The position numbers and the translations under genes are program-made. From a virus, in the IMG/VR virus record IMGVR_UViG_3300036794_000042, positions 9,465 to 73,464 of that record: a stretch of DNA of 64,000 nucleotides; one strand, written 5' to 3'. Shown in pieces: positions 6,836 to 24,504 of the stretch (its first letter is position 1; every line of letters begins with the position of its first letter). The notes under the pieces are model-generated. The model was not told where the DNA came from, made no database searches, and saw nothing but the letters and a program-made list of their open reading frames with translations.

Positions 6836-7567
6836 GTGTACCGTGCTGTTCTCTATGCCCTTTCAGCGGTAGTCCTGGTCTTTTTCGCACTGATGCCCCG
6901 GGCGGGTGTCACCCATGCACCACCTGGCATGGTCTTTGCCAGATACGGCCCCGGAAATGGCCCGGCAGCGGTCTCCAAGACGATCTCGATCCAGACGAGT
7001 TACAAGGTCAGGCAGGGCGACACCCTCAGCTCGATCGCCCGGCACGTCTACGGCCACGCCAGCCGGTGGCCGGCGCTCTGGTACACCAACCGCAAGAAGG
7101 TCCATAACCCGAACGCCCTGGACGCCGGGGTGACGCTCCAGCTCAGCGCCTGGCACCCGCGCAAGAGCTGGATCTTGCACAAGGCGCTCAACCACATCCC
7201 CAAGCCGCCGCCGCCACCGGCCCCGGCACCCGTCCAGGCAGCAGCGCCCGCAGCGGCCACGGCCGCGTCAGACGCCCAGCCCGCAGCAGACCCGGCACCG
7301 GCAGCCGCGCCAGCGGAGAACGTCTCCACGGCTGGCATGGGCAGCTTCCAGAGCTGCGTGATCAACGCGGAGAGCGGCGGCAACAGCCAGGTGATGAACA
7401 GCACCGGGCACTACGGCCTGTACCAGTTCAGCGCACAGACCTGGGCGGCGCACGGCGGCAACCCGGCTGACTTCGGCCATGCGTCGGTGGCCGAGCAGAA
7501 CCAGGTCTTCGCCAGCACCTATGCCCAGGACGGCACCAGCGACTGGGCACCCTATGACGGATGCTGA
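6836..7567 (+). CDS. Secreted LysM + resuscitation-promoting-factor (Rpf)-like transglycosylase
   Basis: AAAGGA RBS + GTG 6836; signal peptide/TM; LysM (YKVRQGDTLSSIA...NPNAL); Pro/Ala linker; Rpf-like core CVINAESGG...GLYQF...TW...EQ...W..C with catalytic Glu. Confidence 0.85.
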   Translation: MYRAVLYALSAVVLVFFALMPRAGVTHAPPGMVFARYGPGNGPAAVSKTISIQTSYKVRQGDTLSSIARHVYGHASRWPALWYTNRKKVHNPNALDAGVTLQLSAWHPRKSWILHKALNHIPKPPPPPAPAPVQAAAPAAATAASDAQPAADPAPAAAPAENVSTAGMGSFQSCVINAESGGNSQVMNSTGHYGLYQFSAQTWAAHGGNPADFGHASVAEQNQVFASTYAQDGTSDWAPYDGC

Positions 7568-7611
7568 CCAGCGGGTAGCCTGCTGACCAGTGTCCCTGCC
7601 AGCCAACCTCC

Positions 7612-7649
7612 GCAGGCCCGGCCCGATCCCCCGTGAGGGCCGGGCCTGC
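7612..7649 (+). terminator. GC-rich hairpin (terminator or processing site)
   Basis: GCAGGCCCGGCCC / GGGCCGGGCCTGC 13-bp stem between genes. Confidence 0.5.
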
Positions 7650-7669
7650 ACCCATCCCCGGGAGTAATC

Positions 7670-8473
7670 ATGGCATTCGAGATCTACGCAGGCGGCAGGA
7701 AAGACCCGCATCCCAATGAGACGCACCCGCGCGTCTACATTGACGATTTCTTCACGCCCAATTCTGAGATAGCGGTCCTGGACACGATCGACTACCTGAC
7801 CGGCGTCCAGTACACGATGGACTTGAACAACAGCCTGGGCGACTGCGGCATTGCGGGCATGGACCATTACCAGATGGCCATCAATTACTTCGAGAACGGG
7901 AATGCGCAGAGCTGGGGCGATTCCACCTGCATGAGCCTCTACGAAACGCTCGGCGGCTATGTGCAGGGCGACCCGTCCACCGACAACGGCACCGTGCTCC
8001 AGGACAACCTGGGCTGGTGGCGGAAGAATGACATCGGCGGTGACAGGATTCTGGCGTTCGGCCAGCTCCGCAATACCGACCGCGCCACCCGGCTCCAGGC
8101 ACTCCAGCTCTTCGGCCCCGGCTATATCGGCGGCCAGCTTCAGAACGCCCAGGAGCAGCAATTCCCCGGCCCGTGGGAGTGGGTGCCGGGCGGCTCCATA
8201 GCGGGCGGCCACTGCGTCACCTACGGGCGCGAGGTGCGCGGGCTCGACCAGGGCGGCCTGTCAAGCTGGGCCGCTGCGGTCCACTGCAATATGGCCTGGG
8301 TGCGGAACTTCCTGGCCCCGGCCGCTGGCGGCGAGTGGTGGTGCATCATCGACGGCAACTGGGTGAAGCGCAACGGCACCAATCCCCGGGGCTTCCGGCT
8401 GGCCGACCTGAACAGCGCGATCACCGGCCTGACACGCCAGGTCAACCCTCTGGGCTTGACTTCCCAGTTCTAG
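7670..8473 (+). CDS. Papain-like cysteine peptidase
   Basis: N..LGDC (Cys nucleophile), GGHCV (His) and downstream LSSW, the layout of papain-fold (C1-like) peptidases. Confidence 0.65.
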   Translation: MAFEIYAGGRKDPHPNETHPRVYIDDFFTPNSEIAVLDTIDYLTGVQYTMDLNNSLGDCGIAGMDHYQMAINYFENGNAQSWGDSTCMSLYETLGGYVQGDPSTDNGTVLQDNLGWWRKNDIGGDRILAFGQLRNTDRATRLQALQLFGPGYIGGQLQNAQEQQFPGPWEWVPGGSIAGGHCVTYGREVRGLDQGGLSSWAAAVHCNMAWVRNFLAPAAGGEWWCIIDGNWVKRNGTNPRGFRLADLNSAITGLTRQVNPLGLTSQF

Positions 8474-8532
8474 GGCACTACCGGGTCTAGCATCTGAGTC
8501 CTGAGACCAGAGCCGCCCAGTGAAGGAGCACC

Positions 8533-8955
8533 ATGTCCGAGCAGCCAGAGGGCCAGCCAGTAGAGCAGGGCCAGCCGGTCACCATCAACCCCGCTGGTGA
8601 GCGTGATGACGTCGCTCCTGGCGACTACTCGCCCACCGACCCGGAGGCGCAGCCGGTCGCGGGAGGCAACCCCGGGCTGAGCGACCAGCCGGGCTACCAG
8701 CAGGAGCCGCGCGGCTTCGGTGACGCCGTGGCCGGGGGCGACCAGGCCGTGTCCCCGATGGGTGCCAGCGCCTCCAACGAGTCGCCCAGCCTGCCGCCGA
8801 CCGCTGCCGCTGGCGCGGCACGGGCGCACGCGCTGCTCGGGCATTTCGTGGACGCCGCGCAGAAGATCCAGGCCGACCTGGCCCGCTACGTCCCGCAGTC
8901 CGCGCTGGACGCGGCCAAGGTCGAAGTGCAGGCCATGCTCCGAGAGATCATCTGA
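8533..8955 (+). CDS. Acidic, Pro/Gln-rich hypothetical protein
   Basis: GAAGGAG RBS; disordered N-terminus, helical C-terminus. Confidence 0.6.
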   Translation: MSEQPEGQPVEQGQPVTINPAGERDDVAPGDYSPTDPEAQPVAGGNPGLSDQPGYQQEPRGFGDAVAGGDQAVSPMGASASNESPSLPPTAAAGAARAHALLGHFVDAAQKIQADLARYVPQSALDAAKVEVQAMLREII

Positions 8956-8958
8956 GTC

Positions 8959-9684
8959 ATGGCAGGAGGGCGGACCTGGGAAGGTGACGTGCCGTGCCTG
9001 GGCGTCACCAACTCAGGCCGTCCCTGCGGTGAGAAGGAGATCGCGGGGCTCGAATACTGCCTGCACCACATCCCCGATGACCTGCTCGATGAGGCGGAAG
9101 AGATCACCGGCATCAGGCGGTGCAGGCACCGCTTCATGGAGGCCGACGCCTGCCGGTACTACGCCACCCAGGGCACCGAGCCGCCGATGTGCAAGAACCA
9201 CGGCGCGAACACCGGCAGCTACCAGTCCAAGATCGCGGCTGGCAGGGTGGTCGAGGGCCGCGCGGTGGACCGGCTGGCCGAGATCATGGCCGAGAACGGC
9301 GACCGGCTGCTGACCGCGCCGCCCGTGGATGACCCGCTGGGCGAGCTGCTGAACCTGGCCGGGGAGATCCGCGAGATGAAGGAGATCCTGCGCCGCGTCG
9401 TGGCCTACCTGTTCAGCCAGGACCGGGTGAGGTACGCGCACAACAAGATCGGTGAGCAGCTCCGGTCGGAGATCCTGCTTTACGAGCGGGCACTGGAACG
9501 TTATGCCACCATCCTGCTCAACATCGCCAAGCTGAACATCGCGGACCGGCTGGCCACCGTGGAAGAGAAGCAGATCCTGGCCATCGAGACCGCGCTGGAC
9601 AAGGCACTGAACGAGACCGGGCTGGACCTGGTGGGCCAGGACAAGGCCCGGAAGGCACTGCGGCGGCATCTCAAGGCGGCCTAG
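8959..9684 (+). CDS. Probable terminase small subunit
   Basis: Two Cys/His clusters (C.G.T.SG.PC...C.HH; C...A....C.NHG, HGG-type) plus helical C-terminus, two genes upstream of TerL. Confidence 0.6.
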   Translation: MAGGRTWEGDVPCLGVTNSGRPCGEKEIAGLEYCLHHIPDDLLDEAEEITGIRRCRHRFMEADACRYYATQGTEPPMCKNHGANTGSYQSKIAAGRVVEGRAVDRLAEIMAENGDRLLTAPPVDDPLGELLNLAGEIREMKEILRRVVAYLFSQDRVRYAHNKIGEQLRSEILLYERALERYATILLNIAKLNIADRLATVEEKQILAIETALDKALNETGLDLVGQDKARKALRRHLKAA

Positions 9685-9888
9685 ATGGCCGGCCGCCGCT
9701 CGGCGCACCGTGCGGTGGTCACCCACCTGGTCCTGGCGGTCACCTGGGCGCTGCTGATGGTGCCTACGCTGATCTGGTGGAAGACGTCGATCCTCTGGGT
9801 GGCCCTGATGAGCGGATACGCCAACATCGCCAGCCACTGGGGCGCGTACCAGGCATCACGATCGGAGCGGCGGATGGCTGATGACTAG
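9685..9888 (+). CDS. Small membrane protein
   Basis: Two hydrophobic segments in 67 aa. Confidence 0.6.
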   Translation: MAGRRSAHRAVVTHLVLAVTWALLMVPTLIWWKTSILWVALMSGYANIASHWGAYQASRSERRMADD

Positions 9889-11521
9889 CACGCTGCTCAA
9901 CCGGGTCGCGGACCGGATGGGCCAGCGCCAGGCCGACCCACGGCTGCGCTGGCGCGAGACCGCCCGGCCGGACCAGCTCCTTCCTGAAGGCGACTGGCGC
10001 GTCTGGTATGTCCAGGGCGGCCGTGGCGGCGGGAAGACCCGCAGCGGTGCCCAGGGGCTCGCGGACTGGCTGCTGAGCGACCCTGACGATGAGGGCGAGT
10101 ACGGCATCGTTGCCCCGACCTATGCTGACGCCTGGACCAAGTGCGTGGAGGGTGAGAGCGGGCTGCTGCGGGCGCTGGGCACGTCGATGAAGGAAGTGAA
10201 GGCGCACACCAGCCGGACGGTGAAGAACGCCTGGCGGACCTACGGCCAGGTGATCCTGCACAGCGGCCTGGTGGTCTACATCGACAGTGCGGCCGAGGGC
10301 GGGCTGCGCATCCAGGGCCGCAACCTCAAGGGCATCTGGTGCGACGAGATCGGGCTCTGGCTGAACTGGGAGACAGCCTGGAACGAGTCGATCAGGTACG
10401 CGGTCCGCATGGGCATCTCCAGGATCATCGCCACGGCCACGCCCAAGGCCAGTCGCCCGGCCCGCAAGCTGATCAGGTCCCTGATCAAGAACGACAAGCA
10501 GCATGGCGGCGTGGTGATCACCAAGCTGCGCACCATCGACAACGCGGCCAACCTGTCCGATGCGTTCCTGGCGGCCGTGGTCGGCGCGGCCGAGGGCACC
10601 AGGCTGGAGCGCCAGGAGCTGGAGGGCGAGCTGCTGGACGATGTGGCCAACGCGCTCTGGACCCGCGACCTGCTGGAGGGCATCCAGGTGCCCGACGTGG
10701 GCGAGGAAGGCGGCCCGCCGTACCTGCGCAACTGCGTCATCGGGGTGGACCCCTCGGACGGCAACGAGACCAGCGATGAGCAGGCATACACCGTGATCGG
10801 TGAGGGCCTGGTGGATGACGGGAAGATCTACGTCGCGGAGAGCTGGGGCGGGCAGATGGCCCCGGCCCAGTTCGCCCGGCTGGTGATCAAGCGGGCGCTG
10901 GCCTGGAATGCGGCCATCGTGGTGGAGAAGAACCACGGCGGTGAGTGGCTGAAGGCCACGTTCGTGCAGGTCATGAAGGACATGCAGGAGGAAGGGCTGT
11001 TTAAGGAGGGCCGCCCGCCGCTGCGCATGATCCACGCCAGCCAGGCCAAGCGGACCCGCGCCGAGCCCGTCTCCGCGCTGTATGAGCGGGACATCGTGCG
11101 GCACTGCCAGCGGATGACGCGGCGGCCGTGCGATTGCAAGGACAAGATCCACAAGGCCGGTCACCTGGTGCCCGACACCAACCTGCCCGAGCTGGAAGAC
11201 CAGATGGCCACGTTCACGGGTGCGGCTGGCGAGCGGAGCCCGGACCGGCTCGACTCGCTAGTGTGGGCGGCCACGCCGTGGCTGAAGAAGACGTTCGGCA
11301 AGCCGCCCAAGGGCGGCGTGCGGCAATGGGCAGCCAAGGCCGAGCTGGAGGCGGTCGGCGGACGGCCGCCATCCAGGGCGGGGCGGCGGCTGGCCCAGGC
11401 GCACAACGGTGTCTATTCTGACGCTGACAAGGCTTGGGATCTTGATGACTTTGCCCCGCGTGGCCAGGAAGATGAGGCTGTCCCGGCTGGCAAGCACGGC
11501 AACATCCGGTCCTGGAGATAA
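9881..11521 (+). CDS. terL: Terminase large subunit
   Basis: Walker A GGRGGGKT, Walker B WCDE, nuclease IGVDPS, C-terminal SPDRLDSLVWA. Confidence 0.95.
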   Translation: MTSTLLNRVADRMGQRQADPRLRWRETARPDQLLPEGDWRVWYVQGGRGGGKTRSGAQGLADWLLSDPDDEGEYGIVAPTYADAWTKCVEGESGLLRALGTSMKEVKAHTSRTVKNAWRTYGQVILHSGLVVYIDSAAEGGLRIQGRNLKGIWCDEIGLWLNWETAWNESIRYAVRMGISRIIATATPKASRPARKLIRSLIKNDKQHGGVVITKLRTIDNAANLSDAFLAAVVGAAEGTRLERQELEGELLDDVANALWTRDLLEGIQVPDVGEEGGPPYLRNCVIGVDPSDGNETSDEQAYTVIGEGLVDDGKIYVAESWGGQMAPAQFARLVIKRALAWNAAIVVEKNHGGEWLKATFVQVMKDMQEEGLFKEGRPPLRMIHASQAKRTRAEPVSALYERDIVRHCQRMTRRPCDCKDKIHKAGHLVPDTNLPELEDQMATFTGAAGERSPDRLDSLVWAATPWLKKTFGKPPKGGVRQWAAKAELEAVGGRPPSRAGRRLAQAHNGVYSDADKAWDLDDFAPRGQEDEAVPAGKHGNIRSWR

Positions 11522-12345: not shown

Positions 12346-12380
12346 GCAGGGCGCGTCTCGCTATGAGGCGCGCTCTTGCT
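12346..12380 (+). terminator. Imperfect hairpin closing the Lsr2-domain insert
   Basis: AGCA-GGGCGCGTCTC-GCTAT-GAGGCGCGCTC-TTGCT. Confidence 0.4.
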
Positions 12381-12396
12381 GCTCTATCCTGCGGTC

Positions 12397-13980
12397 ATGG
12401 CTGCCCGCGACCCGCAAACTGCCCAGGTTCTGGCGTTCCCCGACCTGAAGCCTGCCACCAGGCGCGAGATCCTGGGCAAGGAGCTGGGCACCCAGTTCGA
12501 CATGTCCAACCGGCTCTTCGCCTACTTTGGCGATGGGGATGTCTTCGATTACGGCGAGTGGACCAGCCGTGACATGAAGGGGATGTTCCGCCGCGACGGC
12601 ATCTGCCAGGCCATCGAGTCCGTGCTGACCCTGCCGATCCGTGAGGCTGACTACACCATCGAGCCGGCCAAGGGCGACCAGGGCGAAGCGGAGCTGGCCC
12701 ACTCGGTGATCATGACGCCGGACGCCTTCGGCGGGATGCAGACCCCGGTCAGTGAGCTGGTCGGCCAGATCACCTCAGCCCAGGTCTACCGCCGCGCCTT
12801 CTTCGAGAAGGTCTGGAAGATCCGCGAGGATGACGGCGCGGTGATCTACGACAAGCTGGCGTTCAGGCCGCCCGCGACCTGCCAGGCGAAGTACACCGAC
12901 CGGGGCGGCGTGCCGAACGGCTTCCGCCAGCAGGTCTGGCTGTTCGGCGGGAATCTCAAGACGCTGAGCACGCAGAAGGTGCCCGGCTACGTGGACATCC
13001 CCAAGGTCCGCAGCTACATCTACACCCACGGCAAGCACAGGGAGCCGCTGACGGGTGTCTCAGAAATGGACGTTGCCTACTGGTGCTACCAGACCAAGAT
13101 GAAGATCCTTTATCTCTGGTACCACTTCCTGGAGAACCAGGCCCTGCCCAGGGTGATTGTCTACGGCAACGACCAGCCAGAGGCGAACACCCGCGCCGAT
13201 GACATCGCGGCGCTGAAGAGCAGCGGCGTGGTCGGCATCACTCATCCCGAGGCGGGCCAGAAGGCATTCGACGTCATCGAGAACAGCGGGGACGCGGGCA
13301 AGTTCTTCCTGGACGCGCTCGGCTTCCTGGAGGGCTGGCAGACCCACTCGGTGCTGGCCGGATTTATGGCGCTGACCGGCTCCGCAACCGGGGGCAAGGG
13401 CAGCTACGCCCTGAGCCAGGACCAGAGCAGCTTCTATCTCAAGAGCCGCCAGGGCGTCGCCAAGGAGATCGCCAGCTCGATCACCCAGGATGTGCTCACC
13501 CCGCTAGTCGCGGTCAACTTCGGCCCGAGGGCGGCGTTCCCGCGCTGGAAGTTCGGCCCGCTCCAGGATGAGCAGATTCAGGCGCTGCTGACGCTGTTCG
13601 GCCAGATGAGCGCCGCGCCCGTGCTGCACGTCCCGCTGCCTGTGTTCGACCTGATCACCGAGCGGATGGCCACCATCCTCCAGCTCGATGTGGACCAGGT
13701 GCATGAGGCGCTGGTCAGCACCGCCCAGCAACGTGCCGAGCAGCTACAGGCCAGCGCGCCACCGGGGATGCCGCCCAACGCGGCTAACTCGATCGGGGCG
13801 CTGAACGGGATGGCCGGGGCTGCGGCTGGCATGATGCAGCGCGCCCAGGCCGGCCAGAACCCGCTGCCGAACGCGCCCAGCAAGACCACCTCGCTGCCAG
13901 CAGTCACGCCCAATGGCGGCGGCCCGCCAAGGCCGCCAGCCAAGCCGCCGATGGTGCCGCCACCCGGGCAGATGGCGTGA
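12397..13980 (+). CDS. Portal protein (DUF935 / Mu gp29-like)
   Basis: First structural gene after TerL; 527 aa; D..C..IE..L..PI...DY.IEP, FFEKVW and GS.AL..DQ patterns of DUF935 portals; Pro-rich tail. Confidence 0.85.
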   Translation: MAARDPQTAQVLAFPDLKPATRREILGKELGTQFDMSNRLFAYFGDGDVFDYGEWTSRDMKGMFRRDGICQAIESVLTLPIREADYTIEPAKGDQGEAELAHSVIMTPDAFGGMQTPVSELVGQITSAQVYRRAFFEKVWKIREDDGAVIYDKLAFRPPATCQAKYTDRGGVPNGFRQQVWLFGGNLKTLSTQKVPGYVDIPKVRSYIYTHGKHREPLTGVSEMDVAYWCYQTKMKILYLWYHFLENQALPRVIVYGNDQPEANTRADDIAALKSSGVVGITHPEAGQKAFDVIENSGDAGKFFLDALGFLEGWQTHSVLAGFMALTGSATGGKGSYALSQDQSSFYLKSRQGVAKEIASSITQDVLTPLVAVNFGPRAAFPRWKFGPLQDEQIQALLTLFGQMSAAPVLHVPLPVFDLITERMATILQLDVDQVHEALVSTAQQRAEQLQASAPPGMPPNAANSIGALNGMAGAAAGMMQRAQAGQNPLPNAPSKTTSLPAVTPNGGGPPRPPAKPPMVPPPGQMA

Positions 13981-14624
13981 CCGCCCAGGCACCGCCGCAG
14001 CAGACCCCGGCCCAGCAGGACACGGAGATGGCCGTGGTCGCGGCTGGCGTGCTGGCTAACGCGGTCACGGTCGCTGATGCCACGGCTGGCCTGATCCTGA
14101 TATTCAAGCGATATTCGATCCGGCCCGCCGCGCTGCGGATCGCCGTGGCCGTGGTGATGGGGATGCCGCCCGACCGGCAGGGCGCGATGGGCAGCGCCAC
14201 CATGACGGTCTCGAACCTGAACGTCGTGCGCCGTGCCCAGTTCCTGGTGGCCGCAGCCCGGCGCGTCAACTCAGACATCCAGCAGGCCATCTCGACCCGG
14301 GGCAGCGTGCGCGAGGCCATCGCCACGGCGCTGGTCCGCGAGCGCCGGTACTACGGCCAGCACCTCCAGGCCGGGTGGAACCGGATGGACGCGGCGGCCC
14401 GGACAGACTCGGCGGCGATGCTGTACGGCACGCTGCTGAGCTGGAACGCGGTGATGGACCGCAGCACCAGCGCCGAATGCCGGGCAGCGGACGGCTCGAA
14501 CTACCGGGCCGACGTCATGCCCTGGCTGGGCTACCCGGGCATGGTCCACCCGCACTGCCGCTGCTACCCGGGACCGCCGATCGACGGGGCCAAGACCATC
14601 CCGGCGTGGCGGCCTGGTGGGTGA
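13977..14624 (+). CDS. MuF-like minor head protein (short form, no toxin extension)
   Basis: WNAVMD..T..EC...DG and PG..HPHCRC MuF signatures, directly after the portal. Confidence 0.85.
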   Translation: MTAQAPPQQTPAQQDTEMAVVAAGVLANAVTVADATAGLILIFKRYSIRPAALRIAVAVVMGMPPDRQGAMGSATMTVSNLNVVRRAQFLVAAARRVNSDIQQAISTRGSVREAIATALVRERRYYGQHLQAGWNRMDAAARTDSAAMLYGTLLSWNAVMDRSTSAECRAADGSNYRADVMPWLGYPGMVHPHCRCYPGPPIDGAKTIPAWRPGG

Positions 14625-14697: not shown

Positions 14698-15015
14698 ATG
14701 GAGTCCGACTACTGGGATAACCGGCGCATCCTGATCCAGATCCTCAAGAACACGGAGAAGATCATGAGCCAGCAGGACGACCTCAACCAGGACGAGCAGC
14801 TTCTGGCGCAGGCTCTGTCCGACGTCGCGGGCCAGACCACGGCCCTCGGCCAGACCCAGACCCAGATCGCCCAGGAGATCGCCAGTCTCCAGCAGGCCAA
14901 CCCCTCGCTGGACCTGACCGCGCTGGACGGCCTGGCACAGTCGGCGGCTGGCACCACGGCCGCGCTCGACACGGCGGTTCAGAACCTGGCGGGCCTGGCC
15001 CCGGCAGCCAGCTAG
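14698..15015 (+). CDS. Coiled-coil hypothetical protein
   Basis: AGGAG RBS; Q/L/A heptads. Confidence 0.6.
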   Translation: MESDYWDNRRILIQILKNTEKIMSQQDDLNQDEQLLAQALSDVAGQTTALGQTQTQIAQEIASLQQANPSLDLTALDGLAQSAAGTTAALDTAVQNLAGLAPAAS

Positions 15016-15078: not shown

Positions 15079-16968
15079 ATGATCGCCACCGGCAGCCGGC
15101 GCTCGGACATCGCCGGGAGGCTGCGCACCCAGGCCAACCAGATCGAGAAGGAGCAGCCGCACCTGACCACGCACCTGCACCTGCGGGACGCGGCCAGGGC
15201 GCTCGACCAGAACAACAGCCAGGGCGCGGCCCGCCACATCACCGCCGCGATGCACACCCTGACGCCGCTGTCACTGCTGCGCCACGGCGTGAAGGATGAT
15301 CTCCACCACACAGCGGCCAAGATGGGCATGGACCAGATCAACCGGCACCTGCTGATGGTGAAGGATCTCCAGGAGCTGGAAGACCGTGCCCGGGTAGAGA
15401 AGGAATCCGGTGCGCTGGCCCGCGCCGACCAGAGCGGTGAGTATGCCCCGCCCAAGGCGTTCGTGGTGCCAGGCGCAGCCCCGGCTCCCGGCGCACCACC
15501 AGCATCCGGGCAGGCCCCGGCAGCCAAGGCACCAGGGAAGCCCGCCGTGCCAGCACAGCGCTCAGCGCCGCCCGCTGCGGCCCAGAAGACCCCGCCAGCC
15601 GTAACCGCTCCGGCTGGCGGGCCTAAGACCAAGGCCCAGCTTGCAGCCTGCTACCTGACCGCCATAGAGCTGGCTGACAGGTGGCAGGAAGCCATCGAGC
15701 TGTCTGCGCAGACCGGGGCGCTGTCCTCCATTCACCGGCCCTTCGGAAAGCCGGGCGGCCCTGGCCTCTGGCATGACCAGGGCCTGGAGCTGCCTGCCTA
15801 CATCCAGAACATCGCGCACGCGCTGCTGCGGACCGGCCGGGCCAAGACGCTGAGCCAGGCCATCGCCATCGCCAAGGCGGCCACCAGCCGATGGGAGAAG
15901 GGCAAGAACACCAGCCCCGAGGTGCGCGCTGCGAGCGCCAAGACCAATGCCGAGTGGGAAGCTGACCGGGCCAAGGCCCACGCTCATGCCAGCACCGTCA
16001 TCGCCCAGATAGAGCTGGCGTTCCATCCTGGCGAGCTGCGCAATGCCCACGGCGAGTGGACGCACATCGGGAGCGACACCGGCAAGCTGGCGTTCAGCTA
16101 CCAGGGGCAGCCGGGCAGCTTCGCCCACATCCGCGCGGTGATGGGGGTCGGGGACAAGTACAAGGGCATCGGGGACCTGGCCACGCCCAACACCGGGCCG
16201 GGTGCCGACGTCCTGAGCACGTCGATGCACGCGGCGGCGCGGTTCATGGCGATGCGGCAGATGGACCTGGCGAACCGGGCGCTCGACTCGGCCGACTGGG
16301 CGGCACGGCACGTCAGCCCGCAGGCCCAGTCCGACGTCAGGGCGGTCCGGCGCAGCTTCGCGGCCGTGCCCAAGGGCGTGACCGGCCCCATTCCCAGCAG
16401 GCAGAACTTCTACCAGACCCAGCCAGCGGGCGGGTACTCCACCATCCAGGCAGCCACCGAGATGAGGGCGCTGGAGCTGGCGATAGAGCTGGCAGCCACG
16501 GCACCGTCTGGCGGCCGGTCCGGCGCGGGCCAGAAGGGCGGCGGCGGACGGCCGCAGTCATCCAACTGGCAGAACGAGGCCCGCGTGCCCAAGGGCCAGG
16601 TGGGCGGCGGCCGGTTCGGCTCGGGCGGCCAAGGCCAGGCCGGGAAGAAGATGCACCACGGCGCGCACGGCGGCAATCATCCGAGCCCGCAGCGCCGCGC
16701 CCAGATCATGCAGAAGATCGCCAGCCTGCGGGCCGAGATCCACGCCCTGCTGGCCCAGCTCCCCAAGAAGTCGTCAAGCTCGAAGAGCGGCAAGGCCAGC
16801 AGCTCCAAGGCCGCCAGCTCGAAGTCATCGAGCACCGCCGCCAAGAGCAAGAGCAGCACCCCGGCGAAGAAGGGCACGCCCAGGAAGAAGACCCTGAGCC
16901 CGCAGACGATTCACGCCAGGGTGGCAGCGCTGCGGGGCCAGATCATGGCCCTGCGAGCGCAACTGTGA
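15079..16968 (+). CDS. Modular head-region protein 1 (putative internal head protein)
   Basis: GGAGG RBS; 629 aa; five [I/L]EL[A/S] motifs, FHPGELRNAHGEW and WQNEARVPKG..GGRF motifs; Ser/Lys-rich tail. Confidence 0.7.
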   Translation: MIATGSRRSDIAGRLRTQANQIEKEQPHLTTHLHLRDAARALDQNNSQGAARHITAAMHTLTPLSLLRHGVKDDLHHTAAKMGMDQINRHLLMVKDLQELEDRARVEKESGALARADQSGEYAPPKAFVVPGAAPAPGAPPASGQAPAAKAPGKPAVPAQRSAPPAAAQKTPPAVTAPAGGPKTKAQLAACYLTAIELADRWQEAIELSAQTGALSSIHRPFGKPGGPGLWHDQGLELPAYIQNIAHALLRTGRAKTLSQAIAIAKAATSRWEKGKNTSPEVRAASAKTNAEWEADRAKAHAHASTVIAQIELAFHPGELRNAHGEWTHIGSDTGKLAFSYQGQPGSFAHIRAVMGVGDKYKGIGDLATPNTGPGADVLSTSMHAAARFMAMRQMDLANRALDSADWAARHVSPQAQSDVRAVRRSFAAVPKGVTGPIPSRQNFYQTQPAGGYSTIQAATEMRALELAIELAATAPSGGRSGAGQKGGGGRPQSSNWQNEARVPKGQVGGGRFGSGGQGQAGKKMHHGAHGGNHPSPQRRAQIMQKIASLRAEIHALLAQLPKKSSSSKSGKASSSKAASSKSSSTAAKSKSSTPAKKGTPRKKTLSPQTIHARVAALRGQIMALRAQL

Positions 16969-18569
16969 CCATCAGCGAGCAGATCGAGCTGGCCGGAGGC
17001 TGGCGGGATGCGTGGCGGACCGAGCTGCGCGGCCCTCACGGCGAGTGGGTCCGGGGTACGGGCATCACCGGGCAACTGACCGAGGGCGTCCGGCAGAACA
17101 GCAACCCGATCGCGCTGAGCCAGATCGCGGCGCGCGTTGACGCTGAATCACGGGCAGCAAAGCACACCGATGTCTCCCAGGCCCTGGACCGGGTGGGCGA
17201 CACGCTCCATGAGGCCAAGGGGAGCTGGCCCGATGACAAGCCGGACCTGAATCAGGCGTGGAAGGAGCTGCGGCTGGCCTCCCGGCTGGCTCACAGTCAC
17301 GGTGACCATGCTGACGCGGACAGGTACGATGCCCTGGCCAGCGCCATCGTGGCAGCCCGCGAGGGCGGCGTTTACCATCCAAACGGGCCGCCGCCAGACA
17401 AGGCAGGCCAGCTAAAACTGGCGGCCAAGGCGTTCGTCCAGCAGGCCGCGCCCGAGGTCGGGAAGATCTACGGCGGACCCGAAAAGTGGAACGGCCAGGT
17501 CGCGCTGGTCAGCCAGGAAGACCGGCCGGACATGCTGGGCGAGATGAGCTGGACCGGGGGCATGACCCTGCGGGACAGCGTGGCCAAGAGCATGATCGCG
17601 GACCGGGCTGGCACCGGGCCGGTCCGCGACCCTGACGCCTTTGTGGTGACGCTGCACGAGCTGACCCACGGCGTAGTCAGCCACGGCACCTACTTCCAGC
17701 AGGCCGACGCTTACCAGGACCCGCGCACCGCAGCGATCGAAGAAGGCTTCACGCAGCTCGGCACCACCCAGCACGCGGCTGAGTTCTTCAGCGCGATGGG
17801 CATCGGTGACCGGCCCACCCACATCATGAGCATGGACCCGGGTACCCGGGTGAAGCTGTCCCTGTCCGACCGCAAGGCGCTCCGCGAGGCGTTCACCGAG
17901 GCGCACAGCCTGGAAGCGGACACGCCGCTGGTGCTCAACCGGCTGGACCACGCCAGCACCGCCGCCGAGAAGGGCGACCTGGACACCGCGATCAGCATGG
18001 TGGACAACGCTTTCCAGAGTGCAAGTGATGTAGAAGTCAAGGTCCAGCTCCGGCAGCTCCAGAAGGCCCTGCACAGCGTGGCTGATGACTATGGCGTGAG
18101 CACCCGGCACGACTCAATGGCCGAGTACGCCAGGCGGCAGGCCACCCCGGAGCGCATCAGGCAGGGCCAGTGGGGGCACTACGCGGAGGCCACGGCCGAG
18201 GCGCAGCGCTGGGTCGAGCAGATCGCGGCGGCCGAGGGCCAGAAGACAGCCGCCCGGATGACCGAGCTGTCTGATGAGATCAACCGGGAAGGCCCACGGG
18301 ACAAGATCCACGTCATGGCCGAGCAGATCGCGCGGGCCAGCAAGGTCAGGCCGGTCCCGGGCGGCACGGAGGATGAGGGCCACGACTACACGCACACCCC
18401 GGGCCTGATGACCGATGAAGACTGGGAGAGCGTGGAAGAGAACATTCTGGAGGGCTGGGGCGGTGGCGAGTTCGGCAAGCCGGACGCGGGCGTGGCCTTC
18501 GGCAACGCGAAGAAGGCGCTGGCCCACGTCATGCAGGAACGGGAGAAGATGCTGGCGGGCCGGTCATGA
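16965..18569 (+). CDS. Modular head-region protein 2 with a gluzincin metallopeptidase domain
   Basis: True start is GTG 16965 (GTGA overlap; the track's 16056 extension is a shadow). Begins IELAGGWRDAWRTELRGPHGEW; contains HELTH (17655-69) and AIEEG. Confidence 0.75.
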   Translation: MTISEQIELAGGWRDAWRTELRGPHGEWVRGTGITGQLTEGVRQNSNPIALSQIAARVDAESRAAKHTDVSQALDRVGDTLHEAKGSWPDDKPDLNQAWKELRLASRLAHSHGDHADADRYDALASAIVAAREGGVYHPNGPPPDKAGQLKLAAKAFVQQAAPEVGKIYGGPEKWNGQVALVSQEDRPDMLGEMSWTGGMTLRDSVAKSMIADRAGTGPVRDPDAFVVTLHELTHGVVSHGTYFQQADAYQDPRTAAIEEGFTQLGTTQHAAEFFSAMGIGDRPTHIMSMDPGTRVKLSLSDRKALREAFTEAHSLEADTPLVLNRLDHASTAAEKGDLDTAISMVDNAFQSASDVEVKVQLRQLQKALHSVADDYGVSTRHDSMAEYARRQATPERIRQGQWGHYAEATAEAQRWVEQIAAAEGQKTAARMTELSDEINREGPRDKIHVMAEQIARASKVRPVPGGTEDEGHDYTHTPGLMTDEDWESVEENILEGWGGGEFGKPDAGVAFGNAKKALAHVMQEREKMLAGRS

Positions 18570-18799
18570 CCCCGCAGGGCGAGGCGGCGGCCAAGATCCT
18601 GGCCCGCGCATTCAAGGACCCGGCGTACCGCGTCATTGCGCAGCAGGAGATGCGGACACTGGCCCTGGCCGCTGTTGACAACCAGGCTGAGCGCGAAATC
18701 TGTGATGCCGGCACGAGCCTCAACCGCCTTGTCACGGCTGGCCAGGCGCGTACCATCTCCGATCAGATGACGGAAACGATCACCGGGCAGGCCCAATGA
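18566..18799 (+). CDS. Hypothetical protein
   Basis: ATGA overlaps at both ends. Confidence 0.55.
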   Translation: MTPQGEAAAKILARAFKDPAYRVIAQQEMRTLALAAVDNQAEREICDAGTSLNRLVTAGQARTISDQMTETITGQAQ

Positions 18800-19494
18800 G
18801 TGAGCGGACGGCGCTCTACAGCGACCTGCGCTCCCTTGGCGCTGATTCCTTCGAGGCCGCCATCGTGCTCTCGATCGTGGAAGAGATGACCGTGATCGAG
18901 CTGTCCCGGGCAACCGCCTACCTGCACGAGCCACGCGGCAAGGGCGGCGAGTGGGTCGGCACCCCCGGCGCTGGCCTGGACCGGGCCGGCTCCAGCAAGA
19001 CGGCCCGCCGCGCCAAGGCCCGGCTGGCGAAGAAGCAGGCCGTGGCCGCCCGCCATCCGGTGATGCCGCAGCTCGGCTCACCTGCTGCGGAAGACTCCGT
19101 GATCAAGCCGGACAACACCGCGCACAGCAGGGCATTCCAGCAGCATCTGTCCGAGTCCCAGGCCGAGCACAACAGGCTTCAGGCCCAGATGGAGGCCAAG
19201 GCCGCCAAGCTGGAAGCTGACACGTCTGCCCGGCTGGATGCCCAGGCCAAGCGTCATGTGGCGATGCTCACCCAGTCGATCAAGGACAACAACGCCAAGC
19301 TGGCCGAGGAAGAGAACAGCGAAGAGAAGAAGAAGGCCAGGCAGAAGGCGGCCATTGAGGGCTCGGTCGCGGTGGCCGGCGTGATCGCTGCCTATGCCGA
19401 GACCAAGCTGGGCGTGCCGGACCTAGTGGCCTTTGCCACGTCGGCGGTCGGCCCTGGCATCCAGATCCTGTCCGAGTGGAAGAAGCGCCTCTGA
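18796..19494 (+). CDS. Modular head-region protein 3 (coiled coil + C-terminal hydrophobic hairpin)
   Basis: VIELS followed by YLHEPRGKGGEW; C-terminal AAIEGSVAVAGVIAAYA...LVAFATSAVGPGIQIL. Confidence 0.7.
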   Translation: MSERTALYSDLRSLGADSFEAAIVLSIVEEMTVIELSRATAYLHEPRGKGGEWVGTPGAGLDRAGSSKTARRAKARLAKKQAVAARHPVMPQLGSPAAEDSVIKPDNTAHSRAFQQHLSESQAEHNRLQAQMEAKAAKLEADTSARLDAQAKRHVAMLTQSIKDNNAKLAEEENSEEKKKARQKAAIEGSVAVAGVIAAYAETKLGVPDLVAFATSAVGPGIQILSEWKKRL

Positions 19495-19631
19495 TGTGGT
19501 CTGACGAGAAGAAGGCCCAGGTCAAGGCCATCATGAAGCAGGCTTACATCGAGGGCGGGATGGATGAGGAAACCGCCGATGAAGTAGCCCAGGACGTCAC
19601 TGACCAGGCCGAGCAGCGGGAGTCTGAGTGA
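19494..19631 (+). CDS. Small acidic protein (45 aa, not in the ORF track)
   Basis: MWSDEKKAQVKAIMKQAYIEGGMDEETADEVAQDVTDQAEQRESE; TGATG and GTGA overlaps fill the gap exactly. Confidence 0.55.
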   Translation: MWSDEKKAQVKAIMKQAYIEGGMDEETADEVAQDVTDQAEQRESE

Positions 19632-21646
19632 GCGTCATCGAGCTGCGCGGGCATTTCGACCCGTCCCAGCCCCGGGACAGCCACGGCCGCTGGGCGCATA
19701 CGCCCAGCTATGGTGCGGAGCGGGCATGGGAAGCCGGGGCTGGCCAGCGCCAGCGGGCGTCAGGGCTCTGGGGCGGAAAGACCTACGCCCAGCACAGCGC
19801 AGCCGTGAGCAGGCTGAACCCCGACCAGCTCGGTGAGTACAACGACCAGCAGACCCACGGCGTGAGCCCGGGAGACGCACTGGCCAGGGCGCAGATGCTG
19901 ATCGGCAAGGACCCTTCCGGTGCGTTCGCGGCCAAGGTCAACAAGGTCTATGCCGCCGCAGCGGGGGCGGGCAAGGCTGCTGACGTGCGGGCGCTGAGCC
20001 GTGGCCAGCGGATGGAGTACGTCCGGCAGACCGCCCGGGGCACATCGCACGCTGACGCCATGAAGGCGGCCAGGGCATACACCTCGCCCTGGGAAACCAA
20101 CAGCCCAGCCAGCCGCCTGGCCATGAAGCAGACGATGGACTCAGCCAGCCTGCACACCGCCCAGCGGGCTCCGCTGCTACCCGGTGAGCAGAACGCCCGG
20201 AACGCGGCAGCCGCGCACCTGCGGCGGACCAACGTCTTCACGGCCGGCCCGCACGCCGCGTTTGCGGCCAAGGCCAAGACGCCTACCCTGCTCAAGCTGA
20301 AGGCGAAGTTCGACAGCGGGCAGATCAAGGACCCGGTGATGGCCAGGGCCGTCCAGGCCGAGCTGAAGCTGCGCGGTGAGCTGGCTGGTGCCAGCACCAT
20401 CCAGGCAGCAAACCCGGCAGGGGGCATCGAGCTGGGCTGGCGTGACGCCTGGCGCACGGAGCACCGTGGCCGGGGCGGGATGTGGCAGGGCATTGCCGGC
20501 AGCATGGCCCGGGACATGCTGGCCGGGGCGGCGCAGAACCCGGACAATGCCGCCGCGATGCGGGACATCGCGGGCACGGTCTCCGGCATGGCAGACGCCC
20601 AGCTCGGCCAGCAGCTCGGCATGAAGGTGCCCAAGGGCGCGGCGGACATCATCAGCAACGTCCGGCCGGAGAACGCCGTGGCTGCTGTCCAGAAGCTGAC
20701 CAAGATGGGCATGAAGCAGCTTGATGCGGCCAAGGCGGTGACCGCGATGCTCAACCGGACCCCCGGCGCAGTGACCAGGACCCAGGCGCTGATCGCAGGC
20801 AGCCGGACCGTGCAGACGGCTAACGAGATGGCCACGCCCACCAGCACGGCTGGCCGGAAGGCTGCGTACAAGGCCGGGAACGCGCTGAGGCCAGCCGGAC
20901 CCGGCCAGGCTCCGGGCTTCCCGGTCACCAGCGGGGCGCAGTGGGAGAAGGCACGGCAGGCAGTAGGGCGGGTGGCCGACCCGGCGCGGCGCGCGTCCCT
21001 GGCGAAGCTGCTGCGCAAGACTGCACCTAAGTTCGGCAAGACCAAGGCCCTGGCGCAGAGCTGGGCCGCGCCGGGCGGGGCCAAGACGATGACGGCTGAC
21101 CACGGAAGGACACTCGACATGGCAATCAGGCAGCCGGTCCGCACCCCGTTTGACGTGGTAGTGGCCCGTGGCGACGACGGTGCGGCCATCATCAGGCACC
21201 GGCAGGGCGGTGGCCTGATCGGCAGGATGTACCGCGATGACGCCGGCCAGTGGGTCGGTGTCGGTGACGGCGGGAAGAAGACCGACCCGCGCAATCATCA
21301 GCGCACCACGCTGCTCGACCTGATCACGGCCTACAACGGCACCGCGACCGCCGCGCTGACCAGGCCATCCACTCCCCCGCTGCCCGCCGCGCAGCCCGCC
21401 GTGCAGACCGACCTGATGCAGCAGTTCGGGGTGCCGGCCATCAAGCTGGCCACCCCTAGCACATCGAGCACCGATGGGCCGCGTACCGTGACCTCCGGCG
21501 CGTCGGACAGCGACTCGGACGATGGTCCGGCAGGATTGAGCCCCAAGGGCGTGGCGATCTACAAGAAGCTGAAGGCCAAGGGCTTCCCGGCCGCCCGCGC
21601 CCTGGCGTTTGCCCGCCGTGCCCAGTCCTTCGGAGGCAGCAAGTGA
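19628..21646 (+). CDS. Modular head-region protein 4 (putative internal head protein)
   Basis: Starts VIELRGHFDPSQPRDSHGRW; internal GIELGWRDAWRTEHRGRGGMW, LDMA and IKLA motifs. Confidence 0.7.
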   Translation: MSVIELRGHFDPSQPRDSHGRWAHTPSYGAERAWEAGAGQRQRASGLWGGKTYAQHSAAVSRLNPDQLGEYNDQQTHGVSPGDALARAQMLIGKDPSGAFAAKVNKVYAAAAGAGKAADVRALSRGQRMEYVRQTARGTSHADAMKAARAYTSPWETNSPASRLAMKQTMDSASLHTAQRAPLLPGEQNARNAAAAHLRRTNVFTAGPHAAFAAKAKTPTLLKLKAKFDSGQIKDPVMARAVQAELKLRGELAGASTIQAANPAGGIELGWRDAWRTEHRGRGGMWQGIAGSMARDMLAGAAQNPDNAAAMRDIAGTVSGMADAQLGQQLGMKVPKGAADIISNVRPENAVAAVQKLTKMGMKQLDAAKAVTAMLNRTPGAVTRTQALIAGSRTVQTANEMATPTSTAGRKAAYKAGNALRPAGPGQAPGFPVTSGAQWEKARQAVGRVADPARRASLAKLLRKTAPKFGKTKALAQSWAAPGGAKTMTADHGRTLDMAIRQPVRTPFDVVVARGDDGAAIIRHRQGGGLIGRMYRDDAGQWVGVGDGGKKTDPRNHQRTTLLDLITAYNGTATAALTRPSTPPLPAAQPAVQTDLMQQFGVPAIKLATPSTSSTDGPRTVTSGASDSDSDDGPAGLSPKGVAIYKKLKAKGFPAARALAFARRAQSFGGSK

Positions 21647-22866
21647 CCAGCGCAGTCCTGACGCCGTTCGTCAGGGGCGCAGCGACCCAGCAGCCCGGAG
21701 GGCGGTTGTGGCGCAAGAAGGTGCTGCCCGTAGGGGACATCGACTACAAGGGCCGGAAGCTGAGTTTCACCAGGTCATACAACGATGGCCTGGCTGCGGC
21801 GTACCAGTCCGGTGCCTATGACCAGGTGCCCTTCCAGCTCGCGGACCACGCCAACACCCATACCAACGACCCGGAGCGGTTCCGGGGCGACGTGATCTCT
21901 GTTGACAGTCTTGCTGACGGTCTCTACATCACGCTGGCTCCGACCGATGAGGGCGAGAAGACGCTCCTGACCAACCCCCGCCTGGGTGTCTCCGCACGGA
22001 TTGTGGAGGATTACGCCCGGTCAGACGGCAAGCACTACCCTGCCGCCATCCAGCACGTCCTGGGCACGCTCGACCCCCGGATTCCCGGGCTCGGTGCGTG
22101 GGAGGCCATCGAGGCGTCCAACCAGCCCGAGACGATCATCGACCTGACCGGGGCGACGTTCGCCGGCCAGCAGGAAGGAACAGAAGCCATGCCACTGACC
22201 GACCAGGAGCGCCAGGCCAGGCTGGCCAAGCTGCTCGAAGTCCCCTCTGACCAGTGGGACAAGATCGTCGCCCAGCTCACCGCACCGGCTGCGGCACCCG
22301 CCGCAGGCACCGGGACCGGGACTGGCACCACGACCCCTGCGGCCGGCGATGACCAGCTCACCGCAGAAGAGCTGGCCGAGCTGGAGGCCGCCGCCGCCGA
22401 GCTGGACGCACTGGGCCTGCTCGATGACGAGACCGAGGCCGAGCCGGTCGGCGCGGGCGCTCCCACGGCCCTCTCGAACACTGACCGGATGGCCATCGAG
22501 ATGGCCAACGTCCAGGCGGAAGAGACCGCCCGGCAGCTCCGCGTGGTGACCAACGAGCTGGATGCCCAGCGCTTCGAGGCCGAGAAGGTGCGGCTGGCGA
22601 AGATCGGCATCCCGCCGTACATCACCGAGCTGGCCCGGCCCTTCCTGGAGGGCGCTGGGCACACCGTGGACCTGGCCAACGGCTCCAGCGCGGACGGCGG
22701 CCAGGTCATGCGCAAGGTGCTGGAGGAAGTCGGCAAGCTGGGGCGGCTCATGGGGGAGACGGACGTCGAGCTGGGCAGCCCGATGGACGCGCCGGAGGAT
22801 CAGGGAGCGGCCACGGCCCGGGATGACATCGTGGCCCGCTTCCGCACCCAGACGGGGGCGTTCTGA
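21643..22866 (+). CDS. Capsid maturation protease / scaffold fusion (Mu gpI-like)
   Basis: N-terminal protease-like region (WRK.VLP.G...H.N.P....G....GVSARI...HVLGT.DP.IPGL), acidic helical C-terminal scaffold, position before the decoration and capsid genes. Confidence 0.75.
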   Translation: MTSAVLTPFVRGAATQQPGGRLWRKKVLPVGDIDYKGRKLSFTRSYNDGLAAAYQSGAYDQVPFQLADHANTHTNDPERFRGDVISVDSLADGLYITLAPTDEGEKTLLTNPRLGVSARIVEDYARSDGKHYPAAIQHVLGTLDPRIPGLGAWEAIEASNQPETIIDLTGATFAGQQEGTEAMPLTDQERQARLAKLLEVPSDQWDKIVAQLTAPAAAPAAGTGTGTGTTTPAAGDDQLTAEELAELEAAAAELDALGLLDDETEAEPVGAGAPTALSNTDRMAIEMANVQAEETARQLRVVTNELDAQRFEAEKVRLAKIGIPPYITELARPFLEGAGHTVDLANGSSADGGQVMRKVLEEVGKLGRLMGETDVELGSPMDAPEDQGAATARDDIVARFRTQTGAF

Positions 22867-23086: not shown

Positions 23087-23578
23087 ATGTCAGCAGTGCT
23101 GCCGCACTACAAGATGGGTCCGCAGAACTGTCAGGTCAGCGCTCTGATCTTCGGCGGGCAGCTTGTCGAGTACACCACCCAGACCGCAGGCACCACTGAC
23201 CTGACGGTGAAGCCAGCCATCGCAAACTCGCTGGTCTGCCTGGGCGTTTCCGGCGATGACGGCAACGTTCTCGCTACCCAGACCGGGGCCGCGAACACCT
23301 ACGGCCAGCCGCAGATTGACATCTCGGTGCTGCCGGACTACATCCCCGTCTACTTCGGCGGGGTGGACATCTGGGTCTGGTACTCGGCCCAGGTCACCCC
23401 CGGCCAGCTCCTGGCCACGACCGCGAACGGGACGGTCGGCCCGTTCTCCGGTACCACCTACAGCCAGATCGTGGGCCGCTGCACCAACCCGGGTGGTGTC
23501 GCTTCCGCCCAGCTCACCCAGCAGATCGGCGGGGCCGGCGCTTCCACCTTCTACCTGGGCCGCGCCCGGATCTTCTGA
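23087..23578 (+). CDS. Probable capsid decoration/cement protein
   Basis: 163 aa immediately before the MCP; beta-rich, with the V.PG..L.....G.V...G..IVG pattern of DUF2190/gpD-like proteins. Confidence 0.6.
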   Translation: MSAVLPHYKMGPQNCQVSALIFGGQLVEYTTQTAGTTDLTVKPAIANSLVCLGVSGDDGNVLATQTGAANTYGQPQIDISVLPDYIPVYFGGVDIWVWYSAQVTPGQLLATTANGTVGPFSGTTYSQIVGRCTNPGGVASAQLTQQIGGAGASTFYLGRARIF

Positions 23579-23592
23579 TAAGGAGCTGACAA

Positions 23593-24504
23593 ATGCCTGT
23601 TGCCGCACGCGGTTTCAGCGATGGTCCCCGGATCGTCGTCTCTGAACTGCTGAAGGACCCGCTGGTTATCCCGGCGCTCATCCTGGACATGACGCAGAAC
23701 GAGTTCATCGTGGACTCGGTGCTGCGCAACGGCGGGGCTGCACCGAGCGGCGCGGTGCGCTACTCGGAGTCCACCCCGATGTACGCGGACGACTTCCCCG
23801 AGATCCGGCCTGAGTTCGGTGAAGTGCCGATCGTGCCGACCTCCATCGGCATCCCGCGCGTGGTCTTCAGCCACGAGCGCGCGATGGCGATCATGGTCTC
23901 GGACGAGATGCGCCGCCGCCAGACCATCGACCCGGTGACCCGGCAGTTGCTCCAGGTCAAGAACACGATGGTCTACTCCTGGAACACCGCCTTCTACTCG
24001 GCGGTGGTGGCGAATGCCTCCATCCAGACCCTGGCCGTCAGCAATACCTGGGCATCGGCCGCCGCGACCATCCGCGCGGACATCGCCCAGGCGTGCTTCC
24101 TGGTCGAGAACGCCAACATCGTCTCGCCCTCCGGCGTGACGCAGTGGCTGGGCTTCGAGGCGGACACCCTCATCATCAACCACGCGACCAAGAACACGCT
24201 GCTCCAGAGCAGCACGTTCGCCGCGCCGTACATCGGTGACATCGCCAGCGAGAACCTGCTCTACACCGGCACGCTGCCGCAGAAGATCTTCAACCTGGAC
24301 GTCCTGGTCTCGCGCCAGGTGCCGGCCGGGAACGCGATCGTCATGCAGCGCAACCGGGCGGGCTTCTACGCGGACGAGCTGCCGTTCATCGCAGGGCCGC
24401 TGTACCGTGACGAGCCCAGGAAGACCTGGCGTTCCGACACGCAGCGGGCATCAGCCATCGGCCTTGACCAGCCCCTGGCGATCTGCCTGCTGTCCGGCCT
24501 GTAG
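23593..24504 (+). CDS. Major capsid protein (HK97 fold)
   Basis: AGGAG RBS; 303 aa; E-loop-like E...EFGEVP.V segment; position after protease and decoration genes. Confidence 0.85.
   Translation: MPVAARGFSDGPRIVVSELLKDPLVIPALILDMTQNEFIVDSVLRNGGAAPSGAVRYSESTPMYADDFPEIRPEFGEVPIVPTSIGIPRVVFSHERAMAIMVSDEMRRRQTIDPVTRQLLQVKNTMVYSWNTAFYSAVVANASIQTLAVSNTWASAAATIRADIAQACFLVENANIVSPSGVTQWLGFEADTLIINHATKNTLLQSSTFAAPYIGDIASENLLYTGTLPQKIFNLDVLVSRQVPAGNAIVMQRNRAGFYADELPFIAGPLYRDEPRKTWRSDTQRASAIGLDQPLAICLLSGL

Follow-up and report, generated by a model that had tools for sequence, protein, structure and literature searches.

A two-part peptide tag heads the modules of a predicted head-cargo gene cluster in an uncultured soil actinophage

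We analysed a 64,000-nucleotide stretch of viral DNA, here called the window (positions 9,465 to 73,464 of IMG/VR virus record IMGVR_UViG_3300036794_000042), in which four genes at 15079-21646 carry repeated copies of a peptide tag of about 30 residues and may together represent a split-up polyvalent protein that is loaded into the phage head. The genome is an IMG/VR viral contig of 74,957 bp with 68% G+C, rated 99% complete; the window covers most of it, and the source phage is an uncultured soil actinophage. Its late operon runs in the order terminase, Mu-type portal, MuF, cargo, protease-scaffold and capsid protein. An earlier reading of the bare sequence (the original prediction) had placed four proteins of 629, 534, 232 and 672 amino acids (aa) between MuF and the protease, and these lengths were confirmed.

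All four cargo genes lie on the + strand. Cargo gene 1 (15079..16968, 629 aa) encodes a helical N-terminal part, a Pro/Ala linker, one full and one degenerate tag and a basic coiled-coil tail, and has homologues in three related loci, L002, L003 and L005. Cargo gene 2 (16965..18569, 534 aa) begins with a GTG start, and its product comprises an N-terminal tag, a four-helix bundle and a gluzincin-type metallopeptidase (HELTH ... EEGFTQ). In cargo gene 3 (18796..19494, 232 aa) an acidic leader is followed by the tag, a basic stretch, a coiled coil and a C-terminal hydrophobic hairpin, a layout repeated in the L002 and L005 homologues. This C-terminal pair of hydrophobic helices (19330-19494 in the window, about 3900-4103 in L002) is conserved among relatives, and its sequence suggests that the gene 3 product may be a membrane-inserting ejected protein. 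Cargo gene 4 (19628..21646, 672 aa) is built as tag, module, tag, module and a conserved C-terminal domain, the last of which is a separate 235-aa gene in L002. The modules of the window are thus spread over four genes, and only gene 4 is multi-module. The folds of its modules were not recognised; ESM Atlas searches with both halves of the gene 4 product gave no usable or known fold. Neither Pfam nor PHROGs returned a match for any of the four cargo proteins, and nucleotide and protein searches among GenBank phages found nothing similar to the cluster, to gene 2 or to gene 4.

The original prediction had pointed to IEL-type motifs in these genes, several of them followed by an R-x-x-x-G-x-W motif, and all of its motif coordinates proved correct. 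IEL occurs at 15664, 15694, 16009, 16483, 16983, 18895, 19637 and 20426, the first two being extra sites in gene 1; LELA is found at 16471, and R-x-x-x-G-x-W at 16039, 17028, 18934, 19673 and 20465. Each of the two motifs forms one half of a single header that is about 30 residues long. Five copies, all on the + strand, were scored with a motif profile: one in gene 1 at 16009..16059 (IELAFHPGELRNAHGEW, 49.3 bits), one at the N-terminus of gene 2 at 16965..17048 ((M)TISEQIELAGGWRDAWRTELRGPHGEW, 62.5 bits), one in gene 3 at 18895..18954 (IELSRATAYLHEPRGKGGEW, 52.2 bits) and two in gene 4, N-terminal at 19628..19693 (VSVIELRGHFDPSQPRDSHGRW, 36.1 bits) and internal at 20393..20485 (STIQAANPAGGIELGWRDAWRTEHRGRGGMW, 47.7 bits). 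The profile was built from 20 copies (alignment A1). When the whole 75-kb genome was scanned, the five window copies gave 36-62 bits and everything else stayed below 6 bits; because the profile had been trained on these five, the informative result is that nothing else matched. A looser sixth copy had also been claimed after 16483. It is located where it was said to be (16471..16617, + strand, LELAIELA ... WQNEARVPKGQVGGGRF), but it falls below profile detection. At the corresponding place L003 has a clear tag (AIELARGNDAWRNAWRHELRGPGGQF), so that the copy in the window looks like a degenerate one.

Enrichment of the motifs over the remaining proteins of the genome, on which the original prediction had staked its claim, was clearly seen. 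The genome's own proteins contain IEL 8 times within the 2,067 cargo residues and 5 times within the remaining 15,531 residues (Poisson p 5e-7), and the pattern R..[HGKD]G[ERKMQ]W was found five times in the cargo and not once in the rest.

Anchored on its final Trp, the core of the tag reads [WF]-x-x-x-[EQ]-x-R-[DGN]-x-x-G-[ERK]-W. Among 115 distinct DNA copies the Arg and the Gly are present in all 115, the Trp in 110 and the Glu in 97. Ahead of the Arg, at a distance of 5-13 residues, 110 of 121 distinct tags have an h-[ED]-[LFM]-x element, whose final position is mostly Ala or Gly and which usually follows T-[IL]-[ST]-x-Q. At the two invariant positions all six Arg codons and all four Gly codons are used, and therefore selection acts on the peptide. 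In the AlphaFold2 (AF2) model of the gene 2 product (38 sequences; mean predicted local distance difference test score (pLDDT) 86, predicted template modelling score 0.72) residues 1-14 and 30-45 of the tag region have a pLDDT below 50, and block means over residues 1-50 range from 36 to 57. Because these low values stand ahead of a confidently modelled domain, the tag is not predicted to be part of the gene 2 fold, and we consider it a predicted unstructured peptide.

To place the tag among relatives we fetched 80 IMG/VR loci around homologues of the 407-aa protease-scaffold protein encoded at 21643, and scanned them in all six reading frames. The family of the 407-aa protein has more than 838 members, all uncharacterised proteins from metagenomes; a few come from bins labelled Streptosporangiaceae, which suggests soil hosts of this type. 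All 167 profile matches at 10 bits or more lay on the coding strand in one frame, and all 150 at 12 bits or more lay on the coding strand and no more than 9 kb upstream of the protease gene; downstream of it, 588 kb contained no match at 12 bits or more. One to eight tags were present in 33 of the 39 loci having at least 5 kb of upstream sequence. In several relatives the tags are gathered in giant single proteins that reach about 2,100 aa with 6-7 tags, for example 2,128 aa with six tags in L021. The tag is a real signal, conserved at the peptide level, that heads modules and is confined to the head-cargo block.

Such a repeat might instead be the imprint of a DNA or RNA signal, for example an antisense promoter, a small RNA or a recombination hotspot, lying in the linkers of polyvalent-protein genes. 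The mean DNA column identity of the five window copies is just 59%, and every match is in a single coding-strand frame. This explanation, which we find barely credible, was rejected on the codon usage of the Arg and the Gly described above.

A search of 1.84 billion representative proteins with the profile gave 387 at E <= 0.001 and 92 at E <= 1e-10, and many of the 387 are proteins of 1,000-2,600 aa with 2-8 copies of the tag. Tag placement was evaluated in the 146 best of these representatives. A tag lies inside the first 45 residues of 79 of the 146, and copies elsewhere stand in front of internal modules. Successive tags are 302 aa apart in the median, and a median of 340 aa separates the last of them from the C-terminal end, which makes the tag a header that opens modules and never closes them. 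Pfam domains were assigned in 37 tagged proteins, among them DUF7178 (28), Abhydrolase_8 (7), PI3/PI4-kinase-like (5), ParB_N (4) and ADPrib_exo_Tox (4), and further Arr-ms, Zeta_toxin, LPD1, ATLF and lipase. DUF7178, the commonest module behind the tag, is absent from the window cluster and is present for example in L021 (1423-7806) and L070 (3039-8351). Its consensus (DHPFF ... RWY.DAH ... SPQT.WP) suggests an enzyme.

The more distant matches bear the core alone, 6-8 times each, for example FDPNQPRDESGRWT, KYDPSEPRDEAGRWT and ELHPRDDHGRWT, and the wider form of the header across phages is FDPxxPRDxxGRW. These core-only proteins contain ART-PolyVal, Acb1, an internal MuF domain or HNH, and they adjoin portals of other families, PF04860 and PF06381. 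We concluded that the core is the general header and that the IEL-type half is an addition specific to the window's lineage. As the core is present in phages with at least three portal families, its partner or role must also be far more general than the capsid protein or the protease of the window phage. The original prediction had treated the tag as one local invention, and this part of it could not be maintained. In one distant protein, P0191 (L085, 10001-16027), MuF (residues 990-1040) lies inside a polyprotein of 2,008 aa as one of its modules, flanked by core tags. This arrangement suggests that in that lineage MuF would have to be freed by processing.

Three further explanations concern the core. 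According to the first, the core ([FWY]-x-P-x-x-x-R-D-x-x-G-[RK]-[WF] and its local forms) would be a universal address for cargo loading. A conserved feature of the head, be it the scaffold, the portal or the capsid interior, would read the core, so that any protein bearing it would be packed, and a lineage-specific protease site placed just ahead of the core would release each module. The core would then be a phage counterpart of the encapsulin loading peptides and a general means of packaging foreign proteins. We regard this explanation as rather unlikely. According to the second, which seemed to us unlikely, the core would act during or after ejection, as a leader that threads the module through portal and tail or as a handle for a conserved host factor, and loading would occur by other means. 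The conservation of the core across unrelated portal families fits a universal partner or a physical process, and the core always precedes a module and is predicted to be flexible. Stand-alone tagged proteins must nevertheless enter the head, and no other feature shared among them was seen. The third explanation is self-processing, in which the backbone would be cleaved spontaneously or with assistance at a preceding Asn-Pro or Asp-Pro (FNP, FDP) and the modules would separate without a protease. Many copies indeed read F-[ND]-P-x-x-P-R-D, and Asn-Pro and Asp-Pro bonds are labile. The strongest copies of the lineage, on the other hand, are without any such dipeptide (AWRTELRGPHGEW), and the invariant residues are Arg, Gly and Trp, not Asn/Asp-Pro. 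Because the best copies lack the dipeptide, cleavage at this bond is very improbable.

Module shuffling, which the original prediction had proposed, is borne out by the relatives. There the gene 2 zincin is fused behind different partners, with the tag at every junction: an ADP-ribosyltransferase in L002, a ParB-like module in P0008, an alpha/beta-hydrolase in P0009 and another N-terminal module in P0012. The giant protein of L021 contains Abhydrolase_8 and DUF7178 according to Pfam, and a zincin of the gene 2 type is encoded elsewhere in that locus. In gene 2 itself H231, E232, H235, E259 and E260 are invariant (38 sequences). VIA-align placed the model with moderate Z scores of 8.3-9.3 and 184-199 aligned residues on catalytic domains of M1-family gluzincins/aminopeptidases, and Foldseek with the whole model gave weak zincin matches only. 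Gene 2 combines HExxH and a downstream Glu ligand with a zincin fold, as in gluzincins.

The zincin offers another explanation for the tag, which could be where a zinc metallopeptidase belonging to the cargo itself divides the polyprotein into its modules, before or after delivery, with the head protease uninvolved. Metallopeptidase processing of polyvalent proteins has been proposed by Iyer et al. (PMC5512222). The zincin is among the commonest modules (57 of the 146 best representatives), is usually the last one and is always preceded by a tag; 14 loci have both tags and zincin, and none has the zincin without a tag. Against this, 10 of the 24 tagged loci in which 8 kb or more of upstream sequence was available have no such zincin, and it is likewise missing from each of ten distant polyvalent proteins that were checked and that bear 6-8 core tags, so that the gene 2 zincin was rejected as an obligatory partner of the tag. 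The explanation also leaves unaccounted for an IEL-type element that matches conserved sites in the protease-scaffold protein, and we hold it to be quite unlikely.

The original prediction had named a prohead protease at 21643. The 407-aa protein encoded there (21643..22866, + strand) had no Pfam or PHROG match, and a hidden Markov model search of solved structures gave chance matches only. In its AF2 model (33 homologues) residues 1-144 are confident, and the remainder is helical with disordered linkers, as expected of a fused scaffold. The top Foldseek match was T4 gp21 (5jbl; probability 1.00, E 7e-4, TM by target 0.53), followed by herpesvirus assemblins, and this bears the assignment out. 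H73, S117 and H138 are invariant in the protease (33 sequences), so that the protein joins an assemblin fold with conserved His and Ser. We therefore describe its residues 1-144 as a predicted prohead protease, to which a helical, scaffold-like part is fused.

Four sites of the form h[ED][LM][AGST] are conserved within this protein, all on the + strand, when 59 homologues are compared: IDLT at residue 166 (22138-22149; 53 of 59), IEMA at residue 285 (22495-22506; 56 of 59), VDLA at residue 342 (22666-22677; 57 of 59) and VELG at residue 375 (22765-22776; 41 of 59). The first and the last have a pLDDT below 50, and the model is confident in the segments that hold the two between them. Only three such sites were seen in the remaining alignable structural proteins taken together (~3,800 residues), and the major capsid protein has none (60 homologues aligned). 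Because sites matching it are conserved in the protease-scaffold protein, h-[ED]-L-[AG] can be read as a recognition site of the protease, and it is probably a maturation cleavage site, a candidate that circumstantial evidence points to. The protease-scaffold protein is also 49% identical to gene 13/14 of about a dozen cultured Streptomyces phages, annotated 'hypothetical protein' (JackieB, L090, MH229863.1, 9489-10595), and the IEL-type sites are kept there. From its sequence, gene 13/14 probably encodes a capsid maturation protease fused to a scaffold. When the tag (alignment A1) and the complete protease-scaffold protein (alignment A2) were modelled as a complex, the score was 0.00; being control-free, the run weighs neither way on binding.

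Our preferred reading, to which we give a probability of roughly 0.55, is that the cluster at 15079-21646 is a split-up polyvalent protein whose tag joins a protease site to a cargo header, and whose modules are loaded into the head. The cluster is so interpreted because the tag heads effector-type modules in the giant multi-tag relatives. Most likely, effector or accessory modules would be loaded into the prohead and delivered together with the DNA. Each module would open with the flexible two-part peptide of about 30 residues. Part A, T-[IL]-[ST]-x-Q-[ILV]-[ED]-L-[AG], is specific to the lineage and would be the cleavage site of the T4-gp21-like protease at 21643, which by cutting there, inside the prohead, could separate fused modules and remove leaders from N-termini. 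Part B, [WF]-x-x-x-[EQ]-x-R-[DGN]-x-x-G-[ERK]-W, would be read in trans, its purpose most likely being incorporation into the assembling head. The original prediction had likewise proposed a tag for cleavage and docking on interchangeable cargo. Of this, the conserved tag, its position at the head of modules, its confinement to the region from MuF to the protease, its predicted lack of structure and the match of the IEL-like element to four scaffold sites were found; that the proteins are packaged, cut at part A and ejected into the host, and that part B acts as described, is what we infer.

Several observations weigh against this reading. In L004 (ENA contig_140601, 58.5 kb), where two tagged proteins are encoded at 7518-11101, one of them a zincin, we found no recognisable head gene, protease-scaffold homologue or PHROG match within 10 kb of the tags. 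The neighbouring genes there include cupin, solute-binding and HATPase genes, and L004 could be a degraded prophage or another type of element that uses the tag. Furthermore, large proteins occupy the same position in JackieB and other phages and in phage Mwe-JY05 without bearing a tag: it was found neither in gp8 of Streptomyces phage JackieB (1,169 aa, just after MuF) nor in the 1,669-aa protein of Mwe-JY05, and the protease family therefore works without tagged cargo. That the core is common to phages of other portal families also speaks against a partner evolving as fast as the capsid protein. Finally, the lineage is known from sequence and predicted structures alone. The assignment of Mwe-JY05 (L091, Microcystis phage, PP395638.1) is itself odd, as its head region has 73.7% G+C and its capsid and protease genes are actinophage-like, 41-42% identical to those of the window.

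Around the cargo block the late genes are readily identified. The large terminase is encoded at 9881-11521 and the Mu-type portal at 12376-13980. Directly after the portal follows a stand-alone, short MuF-like head protein of 215 aa (13977..14624, + strand; Pfam PF04233 Phage_Mu_F, E 1.3e-8). The original prediction had called MuF short, and the protein consists of the MuF domain alone, without a C-terminal toxin fusion. Downstream of the protease, on the + strand, lie a scaffold-like 163-aa protein (23087..23578; phrog_673 head scaffolding protein, E 8e-10) and the major capsid protein of 303 aa (23593..24504; PF25209 and phrog_1650, E 2.6e-72). The cargo block also contains two small tag-less open reading frames that the original prediction did not mention, at 14698-15015 (105 aa) and 18566-18799 (77 aa). 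The latter shares 4 bases with its neighbour on either side, and equivalents of it occupy the corresponding position in L005 and L003.

Phages carry enzymes in their heads and disarm the host on injection. To our knowledge the selection of such cargo is understood for T4 and a few giant phages only. If every cargo module is marked by such a short peptide, through hundreds of protein families and unrelated groups of phages, the tag would provide a sequence rule for spotting injected effectors and anti-defence proteins in metagenomes and would define the module boundaries of giant polyvalent proteins. It might also be a transferable label by which foreign proteins could be brought into capsids. 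Since one half is lineage-specific and matches the protease-scaffold sites and the other half is universal, cleavage and addressing should be separable by mutation.

A description of the tag was not found in the searchable literature, where searches on motif strings gave unrelated papers only. One of the closest known systems is the capsid-targeting sequence (CTS) of the T4 internal proteins IPI-III and Alt, which is cut by the gp21 prohead protease (PMC3012670). Both are short leaders common to otherwise unrelated, fast-evolving proteins that are, or here would be, injected, 79 of the 146 best representatives here starting with the tag; both have a hydrophobic-acidic element like gp21-type sites, and the protease has the gp21 fold. 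Unlike the CTS, with which it has no sequence similarity, the tag is two-part and about 30 residues long and occurs also internally, between the modules of polyproteins. Most of the tag, namely its R...G.W core, would remain on the mature protein if the cut were made at IEL, and the core is spread beyond one phage group. In giant phages, the prohead proteases SPN3US gp245 and phiKZ gp175 cut head and ejection proteins at AXE, and the gp21-like protease of the SPN3US gp245 type strips N-terminal propeptides from many proteins and cuts itself (PMC10052503). The candidate site differs here, being h-[ED]-L-[AG], and the tag adds a conserved core.

Polyvalent proteins have been predicted to be packaged into the head and processed (Iyer, Burroughs, Anand, de Souza and Aravind 2017, PMC5512222). 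The cargo described here resembles them in its domain repertoire of zincin metallopeptidase, ADP-ribosyltransferase, ParB and LPD1, with the zincin in gene 2 and ADPrib_exo_Tox, ParB_N, LPD1 and ART-PolyVal in tagged relatives, and in its setting, as the cargo genes sit amid portal and terminase late genes. It differs in that the window modules are distributed over four genes, and no mention of a boundary tag was found in that paper. As in the MuF polymorphic toxins (Jamet et al. 2017, PMC5576092), the cargo genes adjoin MuF and portal and the effector domains are interchangeable, whereas MuF in the window is separate, 215 aa long and toxin-free. The tag is not mentioned in the MuF-toxin paper, the text of which has no words starting with 'motif', 'linker' or 'cleav'. 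The tag may also be compared with the cargo-loading peptides of encapsulins, in which a short flexible peptide addresses diverse enzymes into a shell of the HK97 fold, the kind of mechanism that the original prediction, with its capsid-docking tag, had in view. In encapsulins the peptide mostly sits at the C-terminus, and its consensus differs from that of the tag. Head-packaged, protease-processed cargo of the polyvalent type is thus of a known kind, and what is new is the two-part tag, in which an element resembling a protease site is combined with a universal core.

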